Source: a virus | Lineage: Duplodnaviria; Caudoviricetes | IMG/VR virus record: IMGVR_UViG_3300042866_000779 | Coordinates: 1-61,391 of that record | Length of the DNA stretch: 61,391 bases | Strand: one strand, 5' to 3' | In this document: one piece after another, positions 31,658 through 60,146 of the stretch | How the letters are laid out: each line of letters begins with the position of its first letter | Position numbering within the stretch: the stretch's first letter is position 1 | Translations under genes and position numbers: made by a program | The notes under the pieces: model-generated | Databases searched by the model: none | Told to the model about the DNA's origin: nothing | The model's input: only the letters and a program-made list of their open reading frames with translations

Positions 31658-31720
31658 GGTGGCCTCCATTTAAGAAGTAAGACCACCGAATTGTGTCAAG
31701 GGTCTGGCGGCGGGCAATAG

Positions 31721-33082
31721 TTACTTGGAGATTAATCCGCGCAACCAACTGCCAGCACCATAGGCAGCATTGCCAGCCGGTGCGATTGCGTTACCCATTT
31801 TGGTTACAGTTGTCTGGGGGCGAACGATCTGGCTGTTGAGGTTTTCCAGCACCTTGAACGATTGGTCGCGGGTTTTATCACGCTGTTGCTGATCGGCTTC
31901 CCACTTGCTGTTGCTGCGGGTGTCACCACCAAGTAACTCAGCACCTAGCTCAACTGCGTTGGTTACATCAGCCGCCTCGTCCTTGATGTGGTGGGCAATT
32001 CTGCCGCCCGCAGTGGGATTGGCGACAAGGTTTTTGGCAATGTCATCGGCTGTACTCTGGGCAAATTTCGCCACGCCGGGGACTCCGGTCCTTGCAGCGG
32101 CACCAGCCACACCCCGAACTGCATTGGGAATGGCCTTGTGGGAACCAACGAACCCAGTGCCGTCGAGCATTCCGTTGCCGAAACTGAGAGCCGCGTTGAT
32201 CAAGGGCTGGATATATGGGACTTGACCCTTCATGTGTTCTGGAAGGATTCTGTTTCCGATGGCACCCCGAAAGGTATCCCCGGCACTCATCCCCTCTGAG
32301 CCGTACCAAGCATTCTGACCTTGCTGGATCAGACCGTCATTGCCCCTCCAGCCATTGTCCTTGGCCAATACAGGGTTGGTGCGGAAGAAGTCGGAACCCT
32401 GCGAACGAACTGCCGCATTACCCATAGCCGCAGTTGGGTCTGTAGTTCTGAGGATCGCCGTCCCAAGTTGGCTCATGCCGTCCGAAACCACTCCACCCAT
32501 CTTGGTCGTGAAGCTGCCAACGAAGTTCTCGGGGTTCCAAAGCTCCTGAACACCACCTTCTGGGATGCCGGGGAACATGGTGCCGGGGCCGGAACCCGGG
32601 ATGTAGGCGTGAGTCCGGCCTACCTGTTGTGCGTAATTCTTGGCATAGCCCTCATTCAGCTTGCTTGGAGTGCCGCCAGCCCATGCTGCCGCGCTGGGGA
32701 GCCAACTGTTGTCCGCTTGCTGCGGGGCAATGGAGTCATAGAGCCGGTTGCGGTTCTCAAGCTGGTCGAGGTACTGACCTCCCGGCGAGAACTCGTAGGA
32801 CTCCGGGGTCCTGCCAAGAGCTTTCGATTGCTCGGGAGTCCAGCCCTTCCCGGTATACCCACTGAGCATCTGATCCTGAAGGGCCCGCTCATCGTCATCT
32901 TGAGGCTGGTAGCTCGGGTGGCCCACCTGCCGGTAATACTTGAAGTCATCAAGCTGCGGGTGCTGCTTGCCAGCCGCGTGGGCAGCCGCCATAGCTTCGG
33001 CATTGAATCGAAGCTGTTGCTCCGGGGGCAACCGGGCAATGTCTTGGGCGTAAGCGTGGCGAAGTGCTTCTTCAGGTGTCAT
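31721..33082 (-). CDS. Putative internal virion protein
   Basis: Gly/Ala-rich long ORF in the late operon. Confidence 0.55.
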   Translation of the reverse strand: MTPEEALRHAYAQDIARLPPEQQLRFNAEAMAAAHAAGKQHPQLDDFKYYRQVGHPSYQPQDDDERALQDQMLSGYTGKGWTPEQSKALGRTPESYEFSPGGQYLDQLENRNRLYDSIAPQQADNSWLPSAAAWAGGTPSKLNEGYAKNYAQQVGRTHAYIPGSGPGTMFPGIPEGGVQELWNPENFVGSFTTKMGGVVSDGMSQLGTAILRTTDPTAAMGNAAVRSQGSDFFRTNPVLAKDNGWRGNDGLIQQGQNAWYGSEGMSAGDTFRGAIGNRILPEHMKGQVPYIQPLINAALSFGNGMLDGTGFVGSHKAIPNAVRGVAGAAARTGVPGVAKFAQSTADDIAKNLVANPTAGGRIAHHIKDEAADVTNAVELGAELLGGDTRSNSKWEADQQQRDKTRDQSFKVLENLNSQIVRPQTTVTKMGNAIAPAGNAAYGAGSWLRGLISK

Positions 33083-34696: not shown

Positions 34697-34859
34697 GGGG
34701 AATCTCCATGAGGGGGAAGACGAACCTACGTTGATTACAAGCACCCTCAGGGAGGCGGGCAATCCTTTGATCGCGTAACTATTGCCCGCCGCGTAACTCA
34801 TGCAGATAATGCGGTTTCAGGCTGAGTTAGTTCACTTCGCTGTATATGGGGACACAGAC

Positions 34860-35006
34860 ATGATTTCCCCAGAGGAGCGGGCCGCACTCCTAGCAGCGTT
34901 CGATGACCCCGTGCCCCTCCACGATCACCCCTTCATCAAAGCCCTCCAAGAGAGACTGCCATGCACCCTAGTCAAAGAACTGCCCCAAAAGGAGAAACCC
35001 CAGTGA
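34860..35006 (+). CDS. Small hypothetical protein
   Basis: GGGGA SD; coupled to the next ORF. Confidence 0.5.
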   Translation: MISPEERAALLAAFDDPVPLHDHPFIKALQERLPCTLVKELPQKEKPQ

Positions 35007-35272
35007 ATGATCCAGTGGCATGGGCCGTGACTATTGGCCCGCCTGACGATGTGTCGGTGTACGAGGCTTATGCAGCCCATCAGAAGGAAGAGGCAGTAGC
35101 AATGGCCGATGAGTGCAGGTTTGGCGACAAGGACAAGCCGCTGCCTCTGGCTCCGCTCTACTTCCAGCCCACCCTCACCGAAGAGGAGCAGGAGGCGGTT
35201 GCCGTTGCGATTGTGGGTTCGCTTCCGGGTCGCGCCGCCACGCTCCGCAAACTCTTGGAGAGGATGAAATGA
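35003..35272 (+). CDS. Hypothetical protein (PVAW...PLY, TLTEEEQEAV motifs)
   Basis: AGGAG SD; GTGA overlap. Confidence 0.65.
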   Translation: MNDPVAWAVTIGPPDDVSVYEAYAAHQKEEAVAMADECRFGDKDKPLPLAPLYFQPTLTEEEQEAVAVAIVGSLPGRAATLRKLLERMK

Positions 35273-35792
35273 CGGCTTTCTGTCAGAGCGTGACGGGAAA
35301 CGGTCAGGACTGTGACGGGAAACTGGCAAGTAACCAACATTCCCAAAGTTGGAAAAGTTTCAGGGGGTGAACTAACAGATATACGCTCACACGCGGGGGG
35401 GGCTCACGGGGCCCGCATGAGCCCGCACAGGCCCGCGATTCTTCGCCCGCCCGCCCCTAGCCGCGACCGCCCGCAGCCCCGCAGAACCGCAGCCACGGCC
35501 CCACACGGGCATTCCCGGGCATGGGCATGGCGTGGCAGTCCCGGTTGGCCCTTGGAACCGAGGGCCAACCTCCCCCATTTCTGGGGGTTTTTCGGCTGAC
35601 CTTCACCATCTTCACCACTTTGGTGATGATTGGCAGTGGCCTTGGTGATGATCGGTTTTCGGCGGCTTCCGGCGGTCTGGTCTGGCCTTGCTTGCGCGGT
35701 TCCTTGCACGGGCTGCGCGTTTGCGGTCATGGGCCCGCGCTGTCTTCCCCGCCCTCGCGTGTGCGCTGTCTTTCGTGTGTGTGTGCGCCCGG

Positions 35793-35821
35793 AATCCCCG
35801 GAGGGGATTTTGAGCCTCTGG
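35793..35821 (+). promoter_or_regulatory. GGA-triloop hairpin + AGCCTCTGG element 1
   Basis: AATCCCC-GGA-GGGGATT-TT-GAGCCTCTGG. Confidence 0.85.
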
Positions 35822-35880
35822 TTGTTGTCGGCAACGGCCAGTGTGGTCGATGCGGCACAGCACACTCAGGGAGCAACGTC

Positions 35881-36084
35881 ATGCACACAGTCGAGCAGTA
35901 CGTCAACGGGGAGTTCTTGGTGGCGGCATGGTTCACCGACATTCAGGACGCATATGAGTTCGCCAACAACATCGACGGGCTGGTCATTCCGAAGGAAATG
36001 ACCGACGAGGGGGCGATTGCCAACCGGCGGCTGGATTTCATGGAGGCCGCTTGCGGGTGGTTCTGTGCGGCTGACGAGCGGTGA
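35881..36084 (+). CDS. Early hypothetical protein
   Basis: CACAC-AGGGAG leader then ATG. Confidence 0.7.
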   Translation: MHTVEQYVNGEFLVAAWFTDIQDAYEFANNIDGLVIPKEMTDEGAIANRRLDFMEAACGWFCAADER

Positions 36085-36101
36085 GCCTCACACACACGCT
36101 G

Positions 36102-36130
36102 AGTCAGGGGACCTGACTTTGAGCCTCTGG
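36102..36130 (+). promoter_or_regulatory. GGA-triloop hairpin + AGCCTCTGG element 2
   Basis: AGTCAGG-GGA-CCTGACT-TT-GAGCCTCTGG. Confidence 0.85.
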
Positions 36131-36136
36131 TTGGTG

Positions 36137-36182
36137 GCGGTGGCTGATCGGCAGCCTGACGGGTTCGATGCCCGTTCACCGC
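36137..36182 (+). ncRNA. tRNA-like mini element 1 (acceptor-like stem, D-like arm, T arm; no anticodon arm)
   Basis: GCGGTG/CACCGC; GCTG-ATCGG-CAGC; GACGGG-TTCGATG-CCCGTT. Confidence 0.7.
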
Positions 36183-36222
36183 ACTGGTTCGATTGTTCGA
36201 TTCACACACTGAGGGTGCTGAC

Positions 36223-36474
36223 ATGACAACGGCTGAATTCAAGGCGGAAATGCGGGTTGAGCGTGAGGAACTGTGCGTCGAATGGGGCTTCGCCAACCGA
36301 TTCACGGCGATGATCTTCCAGTGGGTCTGCGACGATTTCAACCGGATCGACTACCCGGACCTTGACGAGGCTTCCGAGGCCATTCGGGAGTACGTCATCC
36401 ATGTGAAGAAAGTGCCTGCCTACCGGGTGCGGCACGTTGACTTCCACGAGATTGCACTGTGCCTGCGAGGCTAG
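36223..36474 (+). CDS. Early hypothetical protein
   Basis: CACAC-GAGGG leader; stop abuts hammerhead 1. Confidence 0.75.
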   Translation: MTTAEFKAEMRVEREELCVEWGFANRFTAMIFQWVCDDFNRIDYPDLDEASEAIREYVIHVKKVPAYRVRHVDFHEIALCLRG

Positions 36475-36525
36475 GCCGAAACCGGGGAAACCCGGTCGCA
36501 CCGTAATGCGGTGCCTGACGAGGCC
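36474..36525 (+). ncRNA. Type II hammerhead ribozyme 1 (predicted cleavage after C36497)
   Basis: GGCC-GAAA-CCGGG(GAAA)CCCGG-TC-GCACCG(TAATG)CGGTGC-CTGACGA-GGCC. Confidence 0.93.
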
Positions 36526-36562
36526 GTTCGTCCCCCTGATTGGTCGATGGGGTAACTCGACT

Positions 36563-36600
36563 GCCTCCCGGTGGACGTTCCATCGGGGGGCTTTTCTTTT
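36563..36600 (+). terminator. Intrinsic terminator-like hairpin + U tract upstream of ORF 36623
   Basis: GCCTCCCGGTGGA/TCCATCGGGGGGC then TTTTCTTTT. Confidence 0.55.
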
Positions 36601-36622
36601 CTTCACGCGAAGGATCACACCC

Positions 36623-36892
36623 ATGCTGGTGCCTGACTACAACCAGATGATCGACGTTTTCCCGGGCGAAACCTATGAGGTTCTCATGCCCTATTCCGAA
36701 GTGTGTATGCACATGGGAATCGCGGGGACCGTTCGACGGATTCTGGTCCGCGAAGCGGGGCGGGGCGTTTACCTGCTGAACGATGACCTGACAACGGGCC
36801 CGCACATGACGAGCGGCGAGGCCGGGATTCTGGGTTGCTCACACAGCCACCCATACACCTACGGGTTCAAGTACCAGTCCCCCCGTGCGTAA
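36623..36892 (+). CDS. Early hypothetical protein
   Basis: AAGGA SD; ATG at 36623. Confidence 0.7.
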   Translation: MLVPDYNQMIDVFPGETYEVLMPYSEVCMHMGIAGTVRRILVREAGRGVYLLNDDLTTGPHMTSGEAGILGCSHSHPYTYGFKYQSPRA

Positions 36893-36919
36893 CCAACGGA
36901 GTTGGTTTTGAGCCTCTGG
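36891..36919 (+). promoter_or_regulatory. GGA-triloop hairpin + AGCCTCTGG element 3
   Basis: AACCAAC-GGA-GTTGGTT-TT-GAGCCTCTGG. Confidence 0.85.
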
Positions 36920-36924
36920 ATGGC

Positions 36925-36974
36925 AGCGGTTGGCTGACGGAAGCCACACCCCGGTTCGACTCCGGGGAACCGCT
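36925..36974 (+). ncRNA. tRNA-like mini element 2
   Basis: AGCGGTT/AACCGCT; GGCT-GACGGA-AGCC; CCCCGG-TTCGACT-CCGGGG. Confidence 0.75.
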
Positions 36975-37011
36975 CTGGGTTCGGGTTCGATCACACACAA
37001 GGGGCACCATC

Positions 37012-37221
37012 ATGCTGGGCGAATATCCCGTGGCGGTTCGTGACGCGGTGACTGAGGCGAGGGCGACGAAAGAAACCCGCTATGTGATCCAGATGGATCA
37101 CGGCGACGGGCGGGCTTTCACATTCTGCGACGAGCAGTATCTCGACGGGCCGGAATACAACGCTTTCGACGGTGTTGTATGGGCGACCGTCTTCCCCGAT
37201 GGGGAAATCTGCCGGGAGTAA
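37012..37221 (+). CDS. Early hypothetical protein
   Basis: CACACACAAGGGG leader; stop just before hammerhead 2. Confidence 0.7.
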   Translation: MLGEYPVAVRDAVTEARATKETRYVIQMDHGDGRAFTFCDEQYLDGPEYNAFDGVVWATVFPDGEICRE

Positions 37222-37224
37222 CCA

Positions 37225-37276
37225 AGCCGAAACCGGGGCAACCCGGTCTGCCAGTAACGCTGGCACTGACGAGGCT
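37225..37276 (+). ncRNA. Type II hammerhead ribozyme 2 (predicted cleavage after C37248)
   Basis: AGCC-GAAA-CCGGG(GCAA)CCCGG-TC-TGCCAG(TAACG)CTGGCA-CTGACGA-GGCT. Confidence 0.93.
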
Positions 37277-37301
37277 ACACACTCACAACGGGAGCCATTC
37301 A

Positions 37302-37658
37302 ATGGCACAGCAATTGGACGAATTCACGCGGCAATTTCTGGAAACCGCACTGTGGTCTTCGACGGACTTGGAAACCGACAAGCCGCTGGATGACACGCAT
37401 GACATCGAAGACTTTGCCCCCGCTACGTTGGCGGAACTGGTCGCGGATTGCAAGGCTTTTCAGGCCGACAACGCTGCCGACATTGCCGCCGATCCGATCC
37501 GGGCTGGACACGATTTCTGGCTGACGCGGTGCGGCCACGGGGCGGGCTTTTGGGATGGCGACTGGCCGCACGACGCTGGAAAGCGACTGACGGCAGCGTC
37601 CAAGGTCTACGGCAACGTGGACTTGTATGTGGGTGATGACGGGCTCGTGTATGCGTAA
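37302..37658 (+). CDS. Phage early hypothetical protein (GHDFWLTRCGHGAGFWD motif)
   Basis: GGAG SD; motif I recognise from other phage hypothetical proteins. Confidence 0.8.
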   Translation: MAQQLDEFTRQFLETALWSSTDLETDKPLDDTHDIEDFAPATLAELVADCKAFQADNAADIAADPIRAGHDFWLTRCGHGAGFWDGDWPHDAGKRLTAASKVYGNVDLYVGDDGLVYA

Positions 37659-37685
37659 TCAACGGAGTTGATTCTGAGCCTCTGG
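37657..37685 (+). promoter_or_regulatory. GGA-triloop hairpin + AGCCTCTGG element 4
   Basis: AATCAAC-GGA-GTTGATT-CT-GAGCCTCTGG. Confidence 0.85.
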
Positions 37686-37690
37686 TATTC

Positions 37691-37739
37691 GACGGTTGTG
37701 GTTCGGCCACCGTCCGGGGTTCGATGCCCCGGAACCGTC
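37691..37739 (+). ncRNA. tRNA-like mini element 3
   Basis: GACGGTT/AACCGTC; GTGG-TTCGG-CCAC; CCGGGG-TTCGATG-CCCCGG. Confidence 0.75.
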
Positions 37740-37773
37740 CTGTGTTCGATTGCCCACACTTGGAGACACGACG

Positions 37774-38169
37774 ATGCACACGCCAAACATTCCGCAGAAA
37801 ACTCTCCCGCACCAGTTCATGGTGTGCGATGACGGCACCCTGAATAGGGTGGTCAAAGTCGATGGGGGGCTGTCGCTGGTGGAGGTCCGGGGGAATTACA
37901 AGCGGCACCACCGGGAAATCAAGACGGTGGCTGACCTGAAAGCCTGCCTGCGGGCTGGGAAATACGCATGGCCCGGTGGCTATGCCTGCTACTTCATCAC
38001 CTCTGACGGTGCAGTCCTGTCCTTTGAGGCAGTGCGGCGAGAGTTTGCGGTGGTCGCCTATGCGGTGAAGGCCCACCACAACAGCGGCTGGCGGGTGGTG
38101 GGGCTGGGATGCACCGCAGAGGATGACGAGGCCCCGGTCTGCGACCACACCGGCAAGGAAATCGACTGA
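37774..38169 (+). CDS. Phage hypothetical protein (YAWPGGY motif)
   Basis: GGAG SD; AWPGGY...DG...CDH motif. Confidence 0.75.
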   Translation: MHTPNIPQKTLPHQFMVCDDGTLNRVVKVDGGLSLVEVRGNYKRHHREIKTVADLKACLRAGKYAWPGGYACYFITSDGAVLSFEAVRREFAVVAYAVKAHHNSGWRVVGLGCTAEDDEAPVCDHTGKEID

Positions 38170-38239
38170 CGGCATCCAACCACCCCGCTCTGCGGAGCGG
38201 GGACATTGGGGATCGTTGGTTACACACACGAAAGGGGGC

Positions 38240-38437
38240 ATGGATTTTATGAACACGGGATCAGTGGTTTTTCTGGCCCTCTTGTTCGTCTGGTTTTTTG
38301 GCGACTGGTTCTATAGGGATGGGCTGGCAAACGGGTTTTACAACTTAGCCAGCTTTGGGTTTTGGGTTTTCTTTTTTGGCCCCCTCTGGTGGGTCGGATG
38401 GATTGCTGTAGCACACGCCATCATTCACACGTTTTGA
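38240..38437 (+). CDS. Small aromatic-rich membrane protein
   Basis: Two hydrophobic segments; AAAGGGGG SD; start 38240 or 38249. Confidence 0.6.
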   Translation: MDFMNTGSVVFLALLFVWFFGDWFYRDGLANGFYNLASFGFWVFFFGPLWWVGWIAVAHAIIHTF

Positions 38438-38458
38438 CACACACGAAAGGGATCGACC

Positions 38459-38851
38459 ATGAAATTCGACCGGAAATTCAACAAGTATGTTTGCGTTGGG
38501 GACACGATCAAGGCAGACATCACCGACAAGTTGCAACTCGTTGCCACTCTCGTCTTCGACGGCGACTGCAACCCGCAAAACGAGGGCTGGTATGACGAAG
38601 CCGACGTTGAGCGGTGGAAGAATGACGAGTGGCATTTCGTGGGGGTTGTGCTGTCCGTTCAATCGCACGACGGCACGATCAACAAACAACTCGGCTCCCT
38701 CTGGGGAAACGAGGCCAACCTCAGGGAAGACAACGACCACTTGACGGACGTTGCCAACGAGTTGATTGACGAGCGGGAAATCGTGGCCGCACTGCGGGAG
38801 ATTTACGAGCCCGTAACCCGGGCGATTAATACTCTCACACGCACAGCCTAA
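38459..38851 (+). CDS. Early hypothetical protein
   Basis: ACACACACGAAAGGGA leader. Confidence 0.75.
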   Translation: MKFDRKFNKYVCVGDTIKADITDKLQLVATLVFDGDCNPQNEGWYDEADVERWKNDEWHFVGVVLSVQSHDGTINKQLGSLWGNEANLREDNDHLTDVANELIDEREIVAALREIYEPVTRAINTLTRTA

Positions 38852-38874
38852 CGGAGTTAGGCACGAGCCTCTGG
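38846..38874 (+). promoter_or_regulatory. GGA-triloop hairpin + AGCCTCTGG element 5
   Basis: GCCTAAC-GGA-GTTAGGC-AC-GAGCCTCTGG. Confidence 0.85.
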
Positions 38875-38894
38875 TTGGTATCGGTTGGATGACG

Positions 38895-38926
38895 GCCCCG
38901 GCAATTTCGCCGGGGCTTTTCTTTTT
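38895..38926 (+). terminator. Terminator-like hairpin in the leader of ORF 38951
   Basis: GCCCCGGC-AATTTC-GCCGGGGC-TTTTCTTTTT. Confidence 0.6.
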
Positions 38927-38950
38927 CACACACACAAGGGGACCGCAACG

Positions 38951-39325
38951 ATGGCAAGCGACAACTACACCGAGAACATGGCCGACATTTTCGAGTGCCC
39001 CCGGGAAAGGCGGATGGTGCTGGAAATCCTGAAGGCATGGGAGTCCGGCGGGCTGCCGAAGGACTTCGATGACAGGGGCGTGAAGCTGGCGTTCAACCGC
39101 AGTAGCGGCAACGTCTTCCTCGTCAACGAGGAATATCAGGTGGCAATGGTGGAGGGGCTCTGTCTGGAGTCCTTCTACTCCAGCCCATACGAGGGCAAGG
39201 AGGGGTTCTTCACGGACCTGCTCTCCGAATACCCGGATATGCACCGCGAGGATCAGGAGTGGTTCCGCGACATCGCAGAGGCGACCGGCAAGGAGGACTT
39301 GCTGCCCGCCTTGGATGACGAGTGA
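38951..39325 (+). CDS. Acidic phage hypothetical protein
   Basis: FNRSSGNVFLVNEEYQVAM motif; stop just before hammerhead 3. Confidence 0.75.
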   Translation: MASDNYTENMADIFECPRERRMVLEILKAWESGGLPKDFDDRGVKLAFNRSSGNVFLVNEEYQVAMVEGLCLESFYSSPYEGKEGFFTDLLSEYPDMHREDQEWFRDIAEATGKEDLLPALDDE

Positions 39326-39327
39326 CA

Positions 39328-39381
39328 GGGCGAAACCCGGGGCAACCCGGGTCTGGCAGTGACGCTGCCACTGATGAGCCC
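39328..39381 (+). ncRNA. Type II hammerhead ribozyme 3 (predicted cleavage after C39353)
   Basis: GGGC-GAAA-CCCGGG(GCAA)CCCGGG-TC-TGGCAG(TGACG)CTGCCA-CTGATGA-GCCC. Confidence 0.94.
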
Positions 39382-39400
39382 ATTACACAAGAGGTGACCG

Positions 39401-39646
39401 ATGACGAACGAGGACAAAGCCAAGCTGTTCCGCATCGTGCGGGACCGACTGAACTGCGGGAAGGTTTGGGGCAAGCGGAAGCACGTTGAGTCCGCGATCT
39501 TCGACGCCCACAACGGCAGGCCCGATGGGTTGCTGGTGACCAACGAGAATATGTACCTGTTCCGGCAGTACCGGAACGGGGTGTCGCCGTCGCCTGCCAA
39601 GCTGGTGAACGAGGCACTGGCATGGAAGGAAGGAGGTGCAGCATGA
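39401..39646 (+). CDS. Early hypothetical protein
   Basis: GAGGTG SD. Confidence 0.7.
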   Translation: MTNEDKAKLFRIVRDRLNCGKVWGKRKHVESAIFDAHNGRPDGLLVTNENMYLFRQYRNGVSPSPAKLVNEALAWKEGGAA

Positions 39647-40104
39647 AGCGGTATCAGGTGCGGTTCCACCTTGGGAAAGGTGAGAACCACGGGAAATGGC
39701 AGGTTAAGAGCATGGCAGGGGTGCGGTACTACGATCCCGCTGCCGTGAGCCTGACCCTGTTGGATTGCCAACTGCGGAATCAACCCGCGACGGCAAAGAA
39801 GGTCTATGAAGGTGCGAACAAGTCGGTCTGTGCGTGGATCGACTGCAATGAGGTGCTGGTCGAGGGGCCAAGCACCCCGACAGGATTGCCGGTGTCCTAC
39901 AACCCCCGGATTGCACCGCACTGGCGGAGCTTTTGCGGGGAGAACATCGACGGCAAGGGGTTCAACTTGCTGCGGTCCAACTGGATTCAGCTTGTCTACA
40001 CGGGAGAGCGGACGATCACGGTCGGCGGTCTGGTGCAGCTTGCACCACCGGCTGATGAGCGGGAGGAAGAACTGCGGATGACCCGCATGAGGAGGGAGCG
40101 ATGA
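39643..40104 (+). CDS. Early hypothetical protein
   Basis: AGGAGGT SD; ATGA overlap. Confidence 0.75.
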   Translation: MKRYQVRFHLGKGENHGKWQVKSMAGVRYYDPAAVSLTLLDCQLRNQPATAKKVYEGANKSVCAWIDCNEVLVEGPSTPTGLPVSYNPRIAPHWRSFCGENIDGKGFNLLRSNWIQLVYTGERTITVGGLVQLAPPADEREEELRMTRMRRER

Positions 40105-40334
40105 GCCACACCACGACGATGATGGACATGACCCGGGGTGAGCTTTCCATCCTTGCCACCGCTCTTGAGAGAGAGTGGCAGCGGACTGGCAAGCTGTGGA
40201 CCGATGGTAACCGGGACGGTTGGTATGACGAGAAGGCGAAGGAGCGGGTGGCCGTCCACCTGCATGAGACTGAGCGGCTTTTCAACAAGGTCAACACACG
40301 CATCAAGGAGATTGACAATGGCAGTGCCACATGA
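40101..40334 (+). CDS. Hypothetical protein
   Basis: GGAG SD; ATGA overlap. Confidence 0.65.
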   Translation: MSHTTTMMDMTRGELSILATALEREWQRTGKLWTDGNRDGWYDEKAKERVAVHLHETERLFNKVNTRIKEIDNGSAT

Positions 40335-40596
40335 CAGACCCACGTTCGATCAGATCATGCACTCGCTCAAGGTTTCTGGCGAGTGCGGCGACGTTCTTTG
40401 CACCCATGCGGCAGAGGAAATTGAGCGGCTTCAGGCTTTGGCAGGGGCTGCCCCTGAGTTGCTGGCTGCGGCAAACGAACTGCTTGCCAACGCCACGCGG
40501 TTTGGGTTTGTGGGCGAGGATTACTCCGCACTGCCTGTCATTCATGAAGCAGTCGTGAGGCTGTCAAAGGCTTGCCGGAAGGCAGAAGGGGGGTGA
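40318..40596 (+). CDS. Hypothetical protein (AAPELLAA motif)
   Basis: AAGGAG SD. Confidence 0.7.
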   Translation: MAVPHDRPTFDQIMHSLKVSGECGDVLCTHAAEEIERLQALAGAAPELLAAANELLANATRFGFVGEDYSALPVIHEAVVRLSKACRKAEGG

Positions 40597-40621
40597 CGCA
40601 TGAACTGGTAACGCACACACG

Positions 40622-40650
40622 GCTCTTCGGAGAAGAGTTTTAGCCTCTGG
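40622..40650 (+). promoter_or_regulatory. GGA-triloop hairpin + AGCCTCTGG element 6
   Basis: GCTCTTC-GGA-GAAGAGT-TT-TAGCCTCTGG. Confidence 0.85.
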
Positions 40651-40660
40651 TTGGTATCTG

Positions 40661-40693
40661 ACCCCCGGCAATTTCGCTGGGGGTTTTCTTTTT
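40661..40693 (+). terminator. Terminator-like hairpin in the leader of ORF 40712
   Basis: ACCCCCGGC-AATTTC-GCTGGGGGT-TTTCTTTTT; near-copy of 38895. Confidence 0.6.
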
Positions 40694-40711
40694 GACACAA
40701 GGGGATTCGAC

Positions 40712-41125
40712 ATGGCGACGAGCGACATCATTTCGGCAGTGGCGGCTGGCCAGACTGTGACCAAGGCCAAGCGGGTTGGACGGGGCAAGGCTGCGGTCGA
40801 GGTGACCATCACCCGGACGGCACCTGAGGTGAAGGTGGTGGACGAGACAGTGAAGGAGGAGCCGGTCAGCTACAGCAACAAGCTGCCGGTGGACGAGGGC
40901 AAGGTGAGGACCGACATCCTCCCGGGCCTTGCTCTGATCCGGTACTCCCGGGGTTATTCGGTGCTGGAGCAGAAGGGAAAGACCTACAGCGGGGCGAAGA
41001 CCAAGCTGCGACGGGTGCTGTACCGCGAGGACCTGATTGCCACTGCCAACGCTTTGCTGGCCGAAGCGGAGGGGGCCCTGTCCTATGACGAGGCCCACGG
41101 CAATGCGGATGCCGTGCCCTTCTAG
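40712..41125 (+). CDS. Early hypothetical protein
   Basis: ACACAAGGGGA leader; stop abuts hammerhead 4. Confidence 0.75.
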   Translation: MATSDIISAVAAGQTVTKAKRVGRGKAAVEVTITRTAPEVKVVDETVKEEPVSYSNKLPVDEGKVRTDILPGLALIRYSRGYSVLEQKGKTYSGAKTKLRRVLYREDLIATANALLAEAEGALSYDEAHGNADAVPF

Positions 41126-41179
41126 TCCGAAACCGGGAGCCCTGCCCGGTCTGGCCGTGATGCGGCCACTGATGAGGAC
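41125..41179 (+). ncRNA. Type II hammerhead ribozyme 4 (predicted cleavage after C41151)
   Basis: GTCC-GAAA-CCGGG(AGCCCTG)CCCGG-TC-TGGCCG(TGATG)CGGCCA-CTGATGA-GGAC. Confidence 0.93.
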
Positions 41180-41201
41180 ACATTCACACAGGAGCCATTC
41201 A

Positions 41202-41819
41202 ATGGCAACGACAACGAGCATCTTGAGCGACACGATCATGGCACAGGCGAAGGCTTTCAAGGAGGCCCGGTCGCGGTTCGATGAGCAGTTCATGGACTGG
41301 TCCCGGGGCATCCCGCCTCTGGCACCGGAACACTTCTGGCCGATGGTCGATGAGTTCCGCAAGGTGGTGGTGGACACCAGCCGGTACGGGACTGGCCCGG
41401 TGGGTGAGGCGGCGGCGAATGAGTTCATCCGGCTGGCTGCGGTGAACGGCGGCGACATTGCTGCGGCTGTCCACTTCGCCCTGTCGTGGCGGCACTACAC
41501 CCGAAGGGCATCTGCCTGCGGCGACAAGTGCGAGTTCGACTGGATGCGTGGCGACGATAGCTACGGTGACCTGATGGATGCCCTGCCCCTTGCTGGCCAG
41601 CGTGTCAACGAAACGCTGGGGCTGGGCAAGTTCGATTCGCTGAACCACTTCAACAAAGAGGTGGGCAATGCCTGCGAATGGGCAGCGGAGGGTGAAGATC
41701 GCAGCAGGCTGAAGAAGATGGTGCTGTCTGGCGAGAGCTACTTCGCATCCTCTCTTGAGGAGGCAGCACAGAAGTGGGTGGTGATTGAGTCCCGCAACTA
41801 CGGAAAGGGAGGTGAGTGA
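41202..41819 (+). CDS. Early hypothetical protein
   Basis: AGGAG SD; ATG at 41202. Confidence 0.75.
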   Translation: MATTTSILSDTIMAQAKAFKEARSRFDEQFMDWSRGIPPLAPEHFWPMVDEFRKVVVDTSRYGTGPVGEAAANEFIRLAAVNGGDIAAAVHFALSWRHYTRRASACGDKCEFDWMRGDDSYGDLMDALPLAGQRVNETLGLGKFDSLNHFNKEVGNACEWAAEGEDRSRLKKMVLSGESYFASSLEEAAQKWVVIESRNYGKGGE

Positions 41820-42046
41820 TGGCCAAGAAGAAGCACCACCCCGACTACGATCCCGAAGTCGAGGCGGGTTCCGTGTACCTACAGAAAGAGGTGGCAGTGC
41901 AGTTGATGCTGGCGATTGGGTACTCGCTCAAGCACAACAAGGGGATGGACAAGCTGGACGAGCAGCGGTTGTTAGTGGCGGGGACAGTGATCAACAACGT
42001 GTTCGCATTGATTCCCCCACCCAAGAAGAAAGCGAGGAGCAAGTGA
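41819..42046 (+). CDS. Hypothetical protein
   Basis: GGAGGTG SD; TGATG overlap. Confidence 0.7.
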   Translation: MAKKKHHPDYDPEVEAGSVYLQKEVAVQLMLAIGYSLKHNKGMDKLDEQRLLVAGTVINNVFALIPPPKKKARSK

Positions 42047-42357
42047 GGACAACGATGACTCTGGTGCTGGCACTGGTAGCTGGCACCACGTTCGGTCAGT
42101 ACCCCTACGTCCAACCGGGATGGGGGTACTGGAACAAGGCGGAAGCCATGCGACAGCAAGCATGGCAGAACCAACAGTGGCAGCGGGATCAGTGGCAGCG
42201 TGAGCGTGACTACCTGTGGGGTGGTGACTCTCTCGACTACGGGCAGCGGGCAGCCAACCTTCGCAAGACAAAGGAGGAAGCGAGGTCGCTGCGATTGCAG
42301 AACGACAGGATGGAAAGCCAAGGCAACCCATACCTGAACAATCCGTTTGAACGATAG
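42043..42357 (+). CDS. Secreted Q/W-rich hypothetical protein
   Basis: Signal-like MTLVLALVAGTTFG; GAGGA SD. Confidence 0.6.
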   Translation: MRTTMTLVLALVAGTTFGQYPYVQPGWGYWNKAEAMRQQAWQNQQWQRDQWQRERDYLWGGDSLDYGQRAANLRKTKEEARSLRLQNDRMESQGNPYLNNPFER

Positions 42358-42358
42358 C

Positions 42359-42387
42359 TTGACGATGTACGCATGTATATGTAGACT
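42359..42387 (+). promoter_or_regulatory. Sigma-70-type promoter TTGACG-N17-TAGACT with an imperfect palindrome in the spacer
   Basis: Near-consensus -35/-10 with a 17 bp spacer; TGTAC-N4-GTATA at 42366-42379. Confidence 0.7.
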
Positions 42388-42397
42388 CACGGGCACA

Positions 42398-42426
42398 AGG
42401 TAACGGAGTTACCTCTAAGCCTCTGG
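42398..42426 (+). promoter_or_regulatory. GGA-triloop hairpin + AGCCTCTGG element 7
   Basis: AGGTAAC-GGA-GTTACCT-CT-AAGCCTCTGG. Confidence 0.85.
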
Positions 42427-42511
42427 TTAGTAGCAGCAACAACAAGGACAGACCCCGGCAGCCACTTCGGCTGACCGGGGTTTGTTCGTTTACCCCCAAA
42501 GGAAATGTGCA

Positions 42512-43381
42512 ATGACCCCCCTCAACGGTTCGATTGTCGAGCGTGTCCGTAACTTCTTCCCCGATGTGACCAAGCAGGTCTTGTACTCGGGTGACATGAA
42601 GCCGACTCCCCACATGGGCCTGTTCCGCAATGACACGGGAGCTTGCTTCGGTCCTGCGGTCAGTGCCAACTACGAGCTTCACACCACCGATGACATCTGT
42701 GCCTTGGTGGAGGCGAGTGAGCCAGTGCTGGGTGAGTGCGGCGACGTTCAGTTGGGCTTCAGAGATGGTCACTATGTGTCCATCCAGCCCACCAAGGACC
42801 ACCTGATTACCGTTCACAAGAACGACACGGTGTTCCCCCGGCTGATCGTCACGGCCCGGTACGGGCAGGCTTTCACCGCCACCATCGGGTTGTTCCGGGT
42901 GGTGTGCGGCAACCTCGCCATCTTCCAGAAGGTGGCGGGCACTTCGGTGCGGATCAGGCACACCTACTCCCTTCGCTCCAAGATGGAGGACCTCATTGAG
43001 GACTTCCACTCCCTGCGGAGCGGGGTGGGCAACCTTGAGGTAGCCATCAAGGAGATGGCTGACCGCAGGGTGCGGCTGGCTGACTTCCTTGACGGCATCT
43101 ACGGCACCCCGGACGAGGGTGCTACGGAGCGGTCGATCACCATGCACCGCAACCGGACGGAGCAGATTGTCCGGCGGCTGATGCGGGAGCAGGTGGCACT
43201 CGGTGAGCAGACCCAACTCAACGAGGTCAGTGCGTGGGCTGCGTTCAATGCGGTACAGGGATTCATCCAGCATGACTCCCGCCGCAAGGGCAAGCCGGGT
43301 GATTTCGACCGGGCCATCATGGCTCTGACGGACCCGAAGGTTCTTCAGGCCCAGCACTTGGCTCTGACGATGGCGGTCTAG
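42512..43381 (+). CDS. DUF932/DUF945-like phage/plasmid protein
   Basis: LFRNDTG..FG.VS.NY; LFRVVCGN; IRHT; SAWAAFNAVQGFIQH. Confidence 0.75.
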   Translation: MTPLNGSIVERVRNFFPDVTKQVLYSGDMKPTPHMGLFRNDTGACFGPAVSANYELHTTDDICALVEASEPVLGECGDVQLGFRDGHYVSIQPTKDHLITVHKNDTVFPRLIVTARYGQAFTATIGLFRVVCGNLAIFQKVAGTSVRIRHTYSLRSKMEDLIEDFHSLRSGVGNLEVAIKEMADRRVRLADFLDGIYGTPDEGATERSITMHRNRTEQIVRRLMREQVALGEQTQLNEVSAWAAFNAVQGFIQHDSRRKGKPGDFDRAIMALTDPKVLQAQHLALTMAV

Positions 43382-43453
43382 TTCATCGGGGGAAGGGGCG
43401 GCGGCTGGCTCGTTGCTGGTCGCCGCCCCGCCCTATTTCAAGGGAGATGAAAC

Positions 43454-43798
43454 ATGGCGAAGTATGAGTTCACCACTGCGGCTGGTAATCGCATTGTTGA
43501 GAAGTGCCTGACGCTTAACAAGGAGAAGTGCTTTGGCTGCATCCCGTATGAGTACGTCGATCAGTACCTGCGGGACGAGGACTATCGCAGTGAGTACGCA
43601 GTGACAAAGTTTGTGGAGTGGCTGAAGGTCAACTCCAAGAGCAGTTCGTCTGCTGTGAAAGTGCTGGGATTGGTGGCTTGCGGCATGGCAGACGAGTTAG
43701 TCCGCGACAAGAGCTTCATCGGCAATGTGGAATCCTTCCACGCTGCCATGACGCATCGGTTCGGAGTGCATGAATCCAACGTAGTGAAAGAGGGGTAG
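43454..43798 (+). CDS. Hypothetical protein
   Basis: GGGAG SD. Confidence 0.7.
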   Translation: MAKYEFTTAAGNRIVEKCLTLNKEKCFGCIPYEYVDQYLRDEDYRSEYAVTKFVEWLKVNSKSSSSAVKVLGLVACGMADELVRDKSFIGNVESFHAAMTHRFGVHESNVVKEG

Positions 43799-43803
43799 TA
43801 ACC

Positions 43804-44121
43804 ATGCAACCACTCATCAGGCTTGATAGCTACCGGGTTAGTGAGCGGGTTGTCCTTCGTAAGGGCACCCGGTTTCGTGCGACGGGAGGACCGCTGTTCC
43901 GGCTGGCCAGTGGGGAGGAGGTGAAATTGGGAGCGAAGGGTCCCTTCACCTTCCTCGCCTTCACCAAGCGTGGATCATGCGAGGTGATCGAAGCACTCGA
44001 CAAGGATGGATCGTTTGTGCCCATGCACATCAAGGGCAGAAGGAGAAAAGTGACCGGCGAGATTGTGACCAAACCGTACCAGATCAAAGGCACCATCAGA
44101 AAGAAAGGCAGAGTTCGATGA
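43804..44121 (+). CDS. Basic hypothetical protein
   Basis: GAGGGG SD. Confidence 0.7.
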   Translation: MQPLIRLDSYRVSERVVLRKGTRFRATGGPLFRLASGEEVKLGAKGPFTFLAFTKRGSCEVIEALDKDGSFVPMHIKGRRRKVTGEIVTKPYQIKGTIRKKGRVR

Positions 44122-44549
44122 TCGTCAGCAACACCCCCAAGGAGATGACCATGAGCGAGTTCGACAAGGAAGTCAGGGCCCTGCGTGGCACGGTCGAGGC
44201 CAAGTCCATACCCAAGCGGAAGGGACAATGCACCCCGGCGGAATGGGCCATGAATCTGGACTACCAGCTTGGGCAGGGGCGGATTCGGCGGCGGCGGGAG
44301 AGGCAGCGTCTGGCCCGTGCCAAGGCCAAGCGGGCTGTGGCCAAGCCGGTGGTGGTGAAGGTGCCCGCTGACAAGGCTGTGGCCAAGCCCAAGGCAAAGC
44401 CTGCCGATTCCCCGTCCGCAATAGCTGTGCTGGCTGCCTGTGCAGTGGACACCAACAGCCTTGTCCTGCTGAAGGTGGCGAAGACTTTGGCCGGTGACAA
44501 CAAGGATGTCATCGGGCTCCTGTCCCTGATCGAACAGTTGATGCTGTAA
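44118..44549 (+). CDS. Basic hypothetical protein
   Basis: ATGA overlap; alternative start after AAGGAG. Confidence 0.6.
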   Translation: MIVSNTPKEMTMSEFDKEVRALRGTVEAKSIPKRKGQCTPAEWAMNLDYQLGQGRIRRRRERQRLARAKAKRAVAKPVVVKVPADKAVAKPKAKPADSPSAIAVLAACAVDTNSLVLLKVAKTLAGDNKDVIGLLSLIEQLML

Positions 44550-44577
44550 CCCACACCCCCAGAGAAAGGAGTCGGCA

Positions 44578-44748
44578 ATGTACCTGCATCGCTATCGGGA
44601 AGGTCTGACCAAGGAAGAGTCGGAGGTTGTGCGCAAGCTGCGGCTCAAGGGCTATGCGATTGTTGTCCTCAAGGCGGGGGCACTGCAACGAGGGGCGGTG
44701 GAAGAGGCCATGCGGAAGGCCGCGAAAAGAAAGGAGGTGGTCACATGA
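44578..44748 (+). CDS. Small basic hypothetical protein (MYLHRYREGL..., 56 aa)
   Basis: Read manually; AAGGAG SD; ATGA overlap with the next ORF. Confidence 0.6.
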   Translation: MYLHRYREGLTKEESEVVRKLRLKGYAIVVLKAGALQRGAVEEAMRKAAKRKEVVT

Positions 44749-45005
44749 CCGCATTGATTGAACTGGCCTATGTAATCTACTGGTGCCGCTCGTTCTATCC
44801 TGCACTGGAGAGTGCGGAGGTGTACAAGCAGCGGCTGTGGGTTACAGCCGGGATGATCGCGGTCCTGTCGGTGGCCAACCACCTGTCCTCCAAGGAATTG
44901 GGGGCGGTGGTGTCTGGCTGGGCGATTGCCATTGAACTGGCGAGTGTGGTTCTCAACGTGATGAACCTTGACGATAGACTCTTTCCCCGGAAGGAAACCT
45001 ACTGA
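44745..45005 (+). CDS. Small membrane protein
   Basis: AGGAGGT SD; hydrophobic segments. Confidence 0.65.
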   Translation: MTALIELAYVIYWCRSFYPALESAEVYKQRLWVTAGMIAVLSVANHLSSKELGAVVSGWAIAIELASVVLNVMNLDDRLFPRKETY

Positions 45006-45211
45006 TGGAACATGACCCATACGATGAGCATCGCAGCCTGCCCAAGGTGGATTACGCCAGCCTTGAGTACCGGCTGTACCGGCTGGCATCAGCCTGTTAC
45101 GCCTACCTCGACGCGAACGATCCCAAGCAGGCGAGGCTCAAGCAACTGTGCAATGACCTGCCTCAGGAGTACGAGGAACGATCCATGCGAAACCACAAGG
45201 AGCGCAACTGA
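45005..45211 (+). CDS. Hypothetical protein
   Basis: TGATG overlap. Confidence 0.6.
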   Translation: MEHDPYDEHRSLPKVDYASLEYRLYRLASACYAYLDANDPKQARLKQLCNDLPQEYEERSMRNHKERN

Positions 45212-45213
45212 CC

Positions 45214-45450
45214 ATGCCCAACACCGCAGTAGAATTGACCGAGAGACAGGAAGAAATCCTGCGTTACGTTGCCAGCCATGTCGAACTGAATGGGTTCCAA
45301 CCCAGCTTCAGGGAGATGATGGATCGGTTCAAGATCAGGAGCCTGAACGGAATCACCTGCCACCTCAAGGCTATGGAGAGGAAGGGTGTCATCCAGTGTA
45401 ACTTCAATACCTCCCGTGCAATCTCGTTCAACTGGAAGGAGTGGCTATGA
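45214..45450 (+). CDS. Stand-alone LexA-type winged-helix DNA-binding domain (no peptidase domain)
   Basis: LTERQEEILRYV...GFQPSFREM...SLNGITCHLKAMERKGVI. Confidence 0.85.
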   Translation: MPNTAVELTERQEEILRYVASHVELNGFQPSFREMMDRFKIRSLNGITCHLKAMERKGVIQCNFNTSRAISFNWKEWL

Positions 45451-46283
45451 AGGCATACATCTACACCCGTGTCTCAACTGTGGATCAGAACCTGACCCCG
45501 GAGTGGCAGGCCAGCGTGTGCCAGACCTACTACGAGACAAGCCTTAAAGACAAAGGCTATGAACTGGCTGGTGTGTTCCATGACCACGGTGTGTCAGCTT
45601 GGAAAATCAACTGGCGTGACAGGCCAAAGGGCAGGGAGTTGTTCAACTTGGTCAAGCCGGGGGACATCATCATTGCCCCCAAGCAAGACCGTGTGTTTCG
45701 TTCAGCCCGGGACAAAGAGAACACCATCCACTACCTTCAGCAAGTGGGGATCGACATTGCGATTCTTGACGCAATGCTGGACACCACTACCGCACCGGGC
45801 AGGTTTGCCGCCCGCATCATCGCAGCGGGGTGCGAGTTTGAGAGTGACACCAAAAGCGAGAGGCAGAAGGCTGCCCACTCTGTTCGGAAGATTCACAAGT
45901 TGCCCATGAAGAAACGCCCACCGGCTGGGTGGAAGTGGGACCGGGCGATTGATGAACTGGTCCCAGACTGGGACGAGCGGCGATTGCTGGCCATGATCTA
46001 TGACCTGAGGGATCGCGGCATTCAGACAGTCGCTGGCTCTGCCCGCACCCTCAAGGACAACGGGGTCAAGCGTGACTGCGGCTACGGCTACAACAAGGCG
46101 TGGCTGTGCCGTGCATACGGCAGCTTCTTGAGGAACTTCCCCCCGGAAGGATTCACCAAGTCCCGTGGCAACACCAAGGTGGCAGTGAAAGCTGGGCGGG
46201 TTAGGTCCTCTTTGTCTCGTGCTGAACGCGAGAGAATCCTGCGCTCGACCGAAGTCGCCCCAGTTTTGCGGCCATCAACTTAG
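45447..46283 (+). CDS. Serine recombinase (resolvase family)
   Basis: YIYTRVSTVDQ; DHGVSA; RPKG; DRVFRS; EFESDTKSER. Confidence 0.9.
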   Translation: MKAYIYTRVSTVDQNLTPEWQASVCQTYYETSLKDKGYELAGVFHDHGVSAWKINWRDRPKGRELFNLVKPGDIIIAPKQDRVFRSARDKENTIHYLQQVGIDIAILDAMLDTTTAPGRFAARIIAAGCEFESDTKSERQKAAHSVRKIHKLPMKKRPPAGWKWDRAIDELVPDWDERRLLAMIYDLRDRGIQTVAGSARTLKDNGVKRDCGYGYNKAWLCRAYGSFLRNFPPEGFTKSRGNTKVAVKAGRVRSSLSRAERERILRSTEVAPVLRPST

Positions 46284-46755: not shown

Positions 46756-46757
46756 GA

Positions 46758-48387: not shown

Positions 48388-48458
48388 GGCATCTCTCCTT
48401 GGGGTTAGGGCAGCGGAAACGATCTGTTGCTTGACTGCCATGCAGCGGTGTAGGCACA

Positions 48459-48893: not shown

Positions 48894-48895
48894 GG

Positions 48896-53942: not shown

Positions 53943-53945
53943 GTG

Positions 53946-60143: not shown

Positions 60144-60146
60144 TGA

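Follow-up and report, generated by a model that had tools for sequence, protein, structure and literature searches.

A hairpin-and-box element heading early gene cassettes in an uncultured phage lineage: a tentative case for a promoter-type signal

What reads a short DNA element that stands repeatedly before early genes, pairs without fail in a stem whose sequence keeps changing, and carries beside that stem a word that differs between sister phages? The element occurs seven times between positions 35,793 and 42,426 of the virus record IMGVR_UViG_3300042866_000779 (Duplodnaviria; Caudoviricetes), a complete IMG/VR record of 61,391 bp with terminal repeats; this whole stretch was analysed and is referred to as the window. 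Each copy consists of a 7-bp stem, a GGA loop, a 7-bp return arm, a 3-nt spacer and a 9-nt box, AGCCTCTGG. The anatomy of the element, the covariation of its stem, its genome-specific box, its placement and its mosaic behaviour are direct observations. As to its function, we tentatively favour, as possible rather than probable, a phage-specific cis-acting transcription signal of the promoter type, which would head each early cassette and be read as an extruded DNA hairpin together with the box.

Anatomy, covariation and the genome-specific box

The box AGCCTCTGG has seven exact occurrences in the window, all on the + strand (at 35813, 36122, 36911, 37677, 38866, 40642 and 42418), among 31 matches when up to one mismatch is allowed. 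The pattern GGA-N10-AGCCTCTGG returns the identical seven sites on the + strand and zero on the - strand, with a mean of 0.01 and a maximum of 1 in 100 dinucleotide-preserving shuffles. The first-pass annotation had listed seven elements with their stems, a GGA loop and a fixed 3-nt spacing, and precisely these sites are recovered; its remark that the stems always pair, with one terminal G-T, is borne out as well, each of the seven having 7 pairs, Watson-Crick throughout apart from the terminal G-T of copy 6. Under DNA folding parameters the hairpin is formed by 7/7 copies, at -3.9 to -5.9 kcal/mol. A covariance model trained on 21 copies (from the window and three relatives) gives seven matches in the window at 44.6-52.6 bits; the runner-up scores 14.6 bits, and there is no further copy.

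All seven copies are intergenic and co-oriented with the genes, 59-92 nt 5' of the next start codon. Copy 1 (35793..35821, +; AATCCCC-gga-GGGGATT-ttg-AGCCTCTGG) opens the array; it stands 59 nt ahead of the ATG at 35881 and about 200 nt past a terminator-like hairpin (35572-35587), and no sigma70-like promoter was found between that hairpin and the copy. Copy 2 (36102..36130, +; AGTCAGG-gga-CCTGACT-ttg-AGCCTCTGG), in which the closing pair is G:C, copy 3 (36891..36919, +; AACCAAC-gga-GTTGGTT-ttg-AGCCTCTGG) and copy 4 (37657..37685, +; AATCAAC-gga-GTTGATT-ctg-AGCCTCTGG) are followed by tRNA-like leaders at 36136-36183, 36925-36974 and 37691-37739, respectively; for copies 3 and 4, the TAA stop of the upstream open reading frame (ORF) runs into the hairpin and overlaps its first 2 nt. 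In copy 5 (38846..38874, +; GCCTAAC-gga-GTTAGGC-acg-AGCCTCTGG) the upstream TAA stop lies within the 5' arm, and a GC hairpin with a T-run follows at 38894-38917. A similar hairpin and T-run (40660-40685) follows copy 6 (40622..40650, +; GCTCTTC-gga-GAAGAGT-ttt-AGCCTCTGG), which has the sole G-T pair. Copy 7 (42398..42426, +; AGGTAAC-gga-GTTACCT-cta-AGCCTCTGG) is followed by a hairpin and T-run at 42464-42481 and by the DUF932 gene (42512-43381). Alternating purine-pyrimidine tracts (GTGTGTGTGCGC, CACACGCACA) adjoin most hairpins.

The element does not have the form of an intrinsic terminator, the stems being mostly AT-rich and followed by NNN and a C-rich box. The seven 7-bp stems are all absent from the output of a terminator scan, where a single row overlaps the element (35802-35819), and this row describes another stem, of 5 pairs, which spans the 3' arm of copy 1 and the box. 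Rfam gave no match over the element at E up to 5. The pattern CGGAG-N9-AGCCTCTGG has at least 116 single, scattered matches in viral contigs, which is the chance level. Several identities were considered and rejected: sigma54, ECF or sigma70 hexamers within the element (the arms vary, and the spacings are not those required); a mimic of the anti-Shine-Dalgarno 16S 3' end (CCUCU past the GGA-loop hairpin fails in the CCCTGTTGG and CCCAGTTGG boxes); pairing of the box with the downstream Shine-Dalgarno (SD) sequence, or a loop-box pseudoknot (inconsistent across copies); a CRISPR-like repeat (genes take the place of spacers, and the stems differ from copy to copy); and an attC-like site (AAC/GTT is present in some stems only, and there is no tyrosine integrase).

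A search with TerL yielded 79 related loci. The element recurs, in 8, 4, 7 and 8 copies, in four other genomes that are complete or nearly so and whose TerL is 75-94% identical. The five genomes together hold 34 copies, a set restricted to fully paired copies with a listed box, which coincides with the covariance-model matches (one copy of the relative G002 scores merely 14.2 bits). Within this set 34/34 copies have 7 pairs, with a single G-T among 238 pairs; when only distinct hairpins are counted (n = 24), there is 1 G-T in 168 pairs. The loop is GGA in 29 copies, GAA in 3 and AGA in 2, and it reads G-R-A in 32/34; the closing pair is C:G in 31/34. In 33/34 copies a purine (G in 26, A in 7) occupies the coding strand at the third spacer base, which lies at 11 nt from the loop centre. 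All 34 copies are co-oriented with the downstream gene, 49-100 nt away, and an upstream stop codon overlaps the stem or lies inside it in 11-13 of them. The 520-nt non-coding stretch 5' of copy 1 (35272-35793) contains TTTCGGCTGAC and, twice, GCGCTGTCTT, blocks that are kept in all five genomes.

Selection on structure and not on stem sequence, as the first-pass annotation had proposed, is well supported. In the 21 copies of the window and three relatives, 147/147 cells are paired and all 7 pairs have changed on both sides; neither the pairing nor the covariation score was equalled in any of 500 shuffles, and slid controls pair at 29-48%.

The box behaves otherwise: it is uniform within a genome yet different between genomes. 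The seven copies of the window have AGCCTCTGG; G001 has GCCCTCTGG in five copies and ACCCTCTGG in three, G003 has CCCTGTTGG in six and ACCCTCTGG in one, G006 has CCCTGTTGG in all eight, and the four copies of G002 have a box beginning CCCAGT. Orthologous copies share flanks and often stems, and the box switches in concert between genomes without a compensating partner. Blanket gene conversion is an unlikely cause, since the stems are distinct among the copies of one genome. The lone ACCCTCTGG copy of G003 lies within a segment 93.7% identical to the window and looks like a recently imported cassette. The simplest interpretation of the genome-specific box would be a sequence-specific reader that differs between sister phages. 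This difference between sister phages was overlooked in the first-pass annotation, as were the ribozymes and the tRNA-like nature of the leaders that are described below.

A sister clade of five genomes (G004, G005 and G008-G010; TerL about 53% identical) lacks the hairpin element, the top covariance-model scores being 13-17 bits. These genomes have instead a fixed 15-mer, CCGCTGCGGAGTCTG, in 8-14 copies per genome, with 59/61 matches on one strand per genome. The copies examined in G004 and G005 lie between the upstream stop codon and a GC hairpin with a T-run, followed by the ribosome-binding site (RBS) and the start codon; the 15-mer thus takes the place that the element has in the window. 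The 3' part of the 15-mer, GGAGTCTGG-TT, is similar to TGAGCCTCTGG-TT of the window. In 15 kb of one sister-clade genome there were 0 sigma70-like promoters versus 2.6 expected, and no Rfam match. A further intergenic region of the window (38170-38239, +), kept in three relatives, contains neither the element nor a hammerhead; it has a hairpin CCCCGCTC-tgcg-GAGCGGGG, the centre of which, CTGCGGAG, recalls the 15-mer.

Cassettes, leaders and the mosaic early block

The element opens cassettes in a block of about 30 small genes on the + strand (34,860-46,283), and the sequence that follows it is itself structured. The first-pass annotation had noted leader structures just past the box in three copies; these are the tRNA-like folds of copies 2-4, each of which starts 5 nt after the box. 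An acceptor-like stem of 7 bp is joined in these folds by a small hairpin and by a T-arm, the loop of which is invariably GGTTCGA. Compensatory change is seen in 9/13 pairs among 11 leaders from four genomes. ARAGORN does not call these leaders, and the copy-4 leader has a weak match to mascRNA in Rfam (22.7 bits, E 0.76). Their probable role is that of processing signals for RNase P/Z, and in the window as well as in the stretches L205, L206 and L207 a loose GTTCGAT repeat, or two, occurs downstream of them. In copies 5-7 the box is followed by the GC hairpin and T-run; this hairpin and that of the T-arm have related sequences.

Four type II hammerhead-like ribozymes alternate with the elements on the + strand, at 36474..36532 in cassette 2 (23.0 bits, full core), 37225..37283 in cassette 3 (31.1 bits), 39328..39385 in cassette 5 (29.0 bits) and 41125..41185 in cassette 6 (32.3 bits); all four scores (23-32 bits) are below the Rfam gathering score of 37 bits. 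The four have complete GAAAC / GUC / CUGAnGA cores, with predicted cleavage sites (GUC) at about 36501, 37252, 39357 and 41152, and lie directly 3' of stop codons, in intergenic regions without the element. The block thus reads element, element, hammerhead, element, hammerhead, element, element, hammerhead, element, hammerhead, element, and the alternation recurs in relatives, which have 1-2 hammerheads each (none in G002 or in the sister clade). Arrays of hammerheads flanking genes in phage DNA, with a proposed role in cutting long transcripts, are described in an earlier report (Perreault 2011, PMC3088659).

One gene pair is separated by the hammerhead 41125-41185 in the window and by a tRNA-like/hairpin structure in G001 (at about 32775-32860, L205), without the element. 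By their sequences, hammerheads and tRNA-like structures are predicted to be interchangeable RNA-cutting signals between genes, and the element is a signal of a different kind, heading cassettes, since the separators replace one another between genomes at a place where the element is absent.

Most of the small early genes are absent or replaced in relatives. What is kept are the element-plus-leader modules and the hammerhead regions, as short homology blocks (e.g., 37650-37776, 37223-37306 and 36917-37014). G006, G007 and eight fragments (9/18 fragments searched matched) have an extra copy of the element immediately 3' of the TerL stop codon. It belongs to an insert of about 765 bp that contains the element, a leader and an HNH endonuclease gene, with a CGTAAC repeat at the flanks; the insert occupies 2510-3280 in G007 (L219) and 44529-45300 in G006 and has no counterpart at 23702-23985 of the window. 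It starts 3 nt 5' of the hairpin, so that the mobile gene brings its own copy.

These facts bring up the proposal that the element serves primarily in recombination, as a cassette boundary at which early genes are shuffled, either through homology patches resembling the PeSL modules of T4-like phages or as a site for a serine recombinase or ERF. Relatives do swap genes while keeping the element-plus-leader and hammerhead linkers, the boundary of the HNH cassette falls at the element, and the phage has a resolvase-type serine recombinase (45447-46283, +), ERF and a RecE-like exonuclease; PeSLs act likewise, according to PMC2839356 and PMC4122927. Variable arms in which structure alone is kept are ill-suited to a dimeric recombinase site, and homology-driven shuffling needs neither a hairpin nor a fixed loop nor a strand bias. 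We therefore regard a primary role in recombination as improbable. The recombination site that the first-pass annotation had suggested lacks recombinase-type features and conserved arms; the part of the suggestion that stands is that the element-plus-leader modules are linkers where cassettes have been swapped. The shuffling at linkers is real and is more likely a by-product of conserved regulatory linkers.

Reading in DNA or in RNA

Several observations point to a promoter-type signal. The element is placed at cassette heads, copy 1 lying past a terminator-like hairpin and no other promoter being apparent; the mobile HNH gene carries its own element; a box uniform within a genome and differing between orthologues is the pattern of phage-specific promoters; the sister clade has its hairpin-less 15-mer in promoter-poor DNA; and the loop rule and spacing of the phage N4 promoters, given below, are obeyed. 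A reading in DNA is suggested by the single G-T among 238 pairs and by the stem of always exactly 7 bp, while the neighbouring RNA structures tolerate G-U, and also by the upstream stop codons that overlap the stem or sit in it. The G-U share of the predicted leader pairs is about 13%, a rough control in which minimum-free-energy pairs include chance ones; the tRNA-like stems have G-U types too.

The proposed course of events is as follows. The perfect 7+3+7 inverted repeat with a C:G-closed G-R-A loop would be extruded or held as a hairpin of the coding strand, and recognition of the downstream box, variable from phage to phage, would fall to a sequence-specific factor that is not the same in sister phages. 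The RNA would have its first nucleotide either at the purine that is 11 nt away from the loop centre (or immediately past it) or a few nucleotides 3' of the box. Each cassette transcript would share a short leader at its beginning, with a stable 5' structure next to it, either tRNA-like and probably trimmed by RNase P or a GC hairpin with a U-run, and would then be cut between genes by hammerheads or tRNA-like structures. The reading at the DNA level, the start site, and both the existence and the identity of the reader (a polymerase, a sigma-like protein or an injected factor) are what we infer from the observations above.

A different account places the element in RNA: the transcribed hairpin and box would act in the nascent leader, where a phage-specific factor, in the manner of nut or rrn leaders, would make RNA polymerase pass structures composed of a hairpin and a U-run, such as stand before many early genes. 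We hold it to be somewhat doubtful and nonetheless near-equal to the promoter-type reading. The copy-7 family is its best ground, for in five out of five genomes a sigma70-like promoter, TTGAC[G/A]-17/18-TAGACT/TAGGAT/TATCGT (9-10 of 12 matches), ends 10-11 nt 5' of the hairpin; in the window it is TTGACG-17-TAGACT (42359-42387, +), ending 10 nt 5' of copy 7. This promoter sets the hairpin at about +4 of the RNA, with a terminator-like hairpin some 40-65 nt further on, an arrangement like that of lambda PL-nutL. In copies 5-7 terminator-like hairpins with T-runs stand between the element and the RBS, and another stands at 36563; there is no room for a promoter, so read-through is required. Upstream of six of the seven copies no promoter can be recognised, PMC3088659 describes a pattern in which hammerheads cut long phage transcripts, and the bipartite form, a hairpin plus a genome-specific box, suits a phage-specific RNA-binding factor. 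The hairpin at 36563 lies 3' of a hammerhead with no element between them, so the polymerase must read through such structures anyway; this removes one objection to the promoter-type reading, yet antitermination fits too.

Other facts speak against an action in RNA. G-U pairs are almost missing from the element (1/238) though adjacent RNA structures use them, and in the copies with a stop codon at or in the stem terminating ribosomes would melt an RNA hairpin. Seven or eight copies per genome exceed the needs of processive antitermination. No N-, Q- or NusG-like gene was recognised in family scans, in a phage where small unknown proteins are abundant. A variant of the same account, in which the element is a cleavage or stability site and the hairpin shields the 3' end of the upstream mRNA, encounters the additional difficulty that the element is kept next to tRNA-like processing signals, which would make a second processing site redundant.

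Some observations on the copy-7 promoter and its gene are added here. The spacer of the promoter contains palindromic GTATAC/TGTA repeats, operator-like in look. Two distant low-GC contigs, L246 and L247, have a DUF932 homologue with a perfect TTGACA-17-TATAAT promoter and no element. A metagenome scan with DUF932 added just three more copy-7 variants and two distant contigs.

Returning to the promoter-type reading, its closest precedent is in phage N4. According to PMC4496689, the hairpin of the N4 promoters lies on the template strand, with 5-7 bp in the stem and 3 nt in the loop, and the non-conserved stem bases need only pair; extrusion requires 5'G and 3'A in the loop and a C:G closing pair; the polymerase reads -11A/G, -10G, -8G and +1C, and the loop-centre purine is read; and +1 lies 3 nt past a 7-bp stem. 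The hairpins of the N4 record, GTTGC-gaa-GCAAC, AAGAAGC-gga-GCTTCTT and AAGCTGC-gga-GCAGCTT, are all on the - strand ahead of + strand genes, that is, the GGA/GAA loops are opposite the early-gene strand, whereas here they are on the coding strand; the inverse polarity noted in the first-pass annotation is thus correct. When the N4 +1 rule is read rightward, the template base is C in 26/34 copies. Firing of the N4 type leftward was rejected: it would be antisense, +1C is found in only 15/34 copies, and the module is conserved to the right, as far as the ATG.

The hairpin-dependent early promoter considered in the first-pass annotation is the best single reading, by virtue of cassette heads, the HNH cassette, the box, strict stems and the N4 rule; it is also unproven, and the following weighs against it. 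The purine loop is on the coding strand, in contrast to N4. No RNA polymerase family was found in Pfam/PHROGs scans of 78 ORFs (Pfam on 10+10+10+48 ORFs; PHROGs on 10+48 ORFs, with the first 25 of 79 families listed), and no T7-type motif B was found. No PDB relative was found for the 1254-aa or the 834-aa protein of the phage, nor for a 24-member profile of the 1254-aa family. In the copy-7 family the sigma70-like promoter makes the hairpin a part of the transcribed leader, where a second promoter would be redundant, and terminator-like hairpins lie within 11-37 nt 3' of 3/7 copies. The sigma-like protein does not track the box, being 88% identical in G002, where the box is different, and 81% in G001, where it is similar.

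The same protein was, on this ground, rejected as the reader of the box: its divergence does not follow the box. Its match to Sigma70_r4_2 is weak (21.7 bits, under the cut-off of 25.7), and among the sister-clade genomes sharing the invariant CCGCTGCGGAGTCTG the sigma-like proteins are 68-75% identical. With the purine loop on the coding strand and no RNA polymerase gene found, the element is not a member of the N4 promoter family; by analogy, it may work like one. A bolder proposal, which we consider unlikely, is that of a second, independent type of hairpin-dependent promoter, in which a non-template hairpin extruded by supercoiling, the mirror image of N4, and a phage-specific box would be read by an unrecognised polymerase or injected factor, the linear 15-mer doing the same job in the sister clade. 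One candidate reader is the 1254-aa protein (56379-60143, -; family unassigned), whose gene has the recombination genes on one side and, across the record ends, the tail genes on the other. It is kept in both clades, with 28% identity to the G005 homologue, and has no Pfam or PHROG relative; its neighbours in the Protein Atlas point to LPD38, a domain of unknown function.

Two further accounts concern the loop and the hairpin as such. GGA in a hairpin loop is the consensus of a CsrA site, and the phage CsrA (52488-52706, -; Pfam E 4e-16) might bind the loop in early mRNA leaders, shutting them off or stabilising them. CsrA is present in 4/4 element-bearing relatives tested and absent from the element-less G004, a co-occurrence that is confounded by phylogeny as it rests on one distant genome; by eye, GGA is also found in 5/7 downstream SD regions. 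The loops are GAA or AGA in 5/34 copies, including 3/4 in G002, in genomes that keep CsrA at 86-89% identity; the invariant genome-specific box and the fixed 7-bp stem find no explanation, and the hairpin lies about 70-120 nt from the SD, past the bridging range. The CsrA site put forward in the first-pass annotation is weakened by these loops and by the box, and we find it very unlikely.

A hairpin with a conserved single-strand word at a fixed 3' distance is also the form of oriT nic sites and of priming signals of the G4 type. The element resembles them, and CTG is present in the A- and B-type boxes, so that a single-strand DNA transaction site might be supposed, either a G4-type priming signal (hairpin plus CTG) or a nick site of an HUH-type nuclease. 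CTG is missing from the G002 boxes, no HUH nuclease, relaxase or primase was recognised in family scans, and 7-8 sites tied to gene starts and leaders indicate expression rather than replication. Among the accounts given here we give this one the least credence.

Genome context and comparison with known systems

The early block lies between two blocks on the - strand. The first (214-34,801) encodes virion and packaging proteins, including a collagen/Mtd_N tail fibre (9954-12491), a P22-like portal (21111-23240), TerL (23986-25662) and the major head protein (29448-30581). A DUF1559 pseudopilin-like protein with an N-terminal methylation motif (15384-16394, -) is encoded among the virion genes; the family is typical of Planctomycetes, and the protein hints at a planctomycete host, Planctomycetes being probably the hosts of this phage lineage. 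The second block (46,201-61,366) contains replication and recombination genes and encodes a DEAD/ResIII helicase, the RecE-like exonuclease, ERF, MazG-type enzymes, two HNH proteins, CsrA and the sigma-like protein. Near the end of the early block there are a LexA DNA-binding domain alone (78 aa; 45214-45450, +) and the serine recombinase, whose integrase-type PHROG match means that the phage may be temperate. DUF932 alone among 20 early proteins clears its Pfam cut-off. No tRNA gene and no Rfam family was found at threshold in the window. No cultured relatives were found, the top TerL identity in the phage collection being 27%, nor any prophage relatives in the genome contigs searched with DUF932 or the major capsid protein.

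Ahead of most early start codons the ribosome-binding region combines a CACAC(A) tract with a G-rich SD 3' of it (AAGGGG, CAGGGAG or ACGGGAG). A second repeat, GTAACnATTGCCCGCC, is intergenic in the virion operon, at 23974-23989 (-), 28275-28290 (-), 31709-31724 (-) and 34754-34790 (both strands), the last being an inverted pair within the divergent region. As a candidate late promoter or operator, the repeat might serve the sigma-like protein or the LexA-like one.

To our knowledge, hairpin-dependent promoters are known only from N4-like phages, which have a giant virion RNA polymerase. A full-text search that covered few subscription journals and no supplements turned up no like element outside the N4 work, and it is a real possibility that the mechanism is new. 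As a promoter, the element would imply a transcription machine or factor not yet known; as a signal in RNA, it would be a new multi-copy nut-like or processing signal. Sister phages with different boxes and a sister clade with a hairpin-less 15-mer constitute a natural experiment, and the hammerheads and tRNA-like structures across the early region make the logic of the early cassettes directly testable.

The promoters that the virion RNA polymerase of N4 uses (P1-P3) share with the element a 5-7-bp stem, a G-R-A triloop, C:G closure and the occurrence of several copies before early genes; the fixed distance of 11 nt from the loop centre to the start in N4 corresponds to the place where a purine is found here in 33/34 copies. 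They differ in that stem bases are conserved in N4 (-8G) and +1 is preceded there by an A-tract, in place of which there is here a 9-nt genome-specific box 3' of the hairpin, and in that N4 has a virion RNA polymerase of 3500 aa. The mini-hairpin rule and the spacing of N4 thus recur, with inverted polarity, in an unrelated uncultured 61-kb phage lineage without a recognisable polymerase.

The PeSLs of T4-like phages consist, according to PMC2839356 and PMC4122927, of a consensus sigma70 promoter and a G/C-rich terminator stem-loop and serve as linkers for gene swaps. Like them, the element is a small repeated regulatory module between ORFan early genes, in a hyperplastic region, at breakpoints of gene insertion, deletion and swap. 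Unlike them, it has a sigma70-like promoter near copy 7 only (9/12), the other six having none or at most 6/12, and its hairpin is AT-rich, with a fixed purine triloop, no U-run and a conserved word that is not sigma70-like.

Antitermination leaders of the lambda nut and rrn type combine boxB, a hairpin with a purine-rich loop, and a linear boxA, and have phage-specific variants. The likeness is in the bipartite composition, a hairpin and a linear word in leaders 5' of terminator-like structures (by sequence, in the copy-7 family). The element differs in its 7-8 copies per genome, in its strictly Watson-Crick variable stems, and in that the linear box varies instead of the hairpin; no family match to an N- or Nus-type gene was found among the early proteins. 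The CsrA/RsmA hairpins, too, are short hairpins of mRNA leaders that display GGA in their loop, and CsrA is one of the phage's own proteins; here the loop is strictly of 3 nt, an extra invariant box is present, and GGA is exchanged for GAA or AGA in the copies mentioned.

The promoters of the T7 group, words of 17-23 bp, resemble both the element and the 15-mer of the sister clade: they are near-identical within a genome, different between sisters, placed 5' of genes and followed by a stem-loop leader. The hairpin part of the element has no counterpart in T7, and no single-subunit RNA polymerase was found here. If the second type of hairpin promoter is real, then together with the 15-mer of the sister clade it would parallel, within one phage lineage, the split between T7 and N4.

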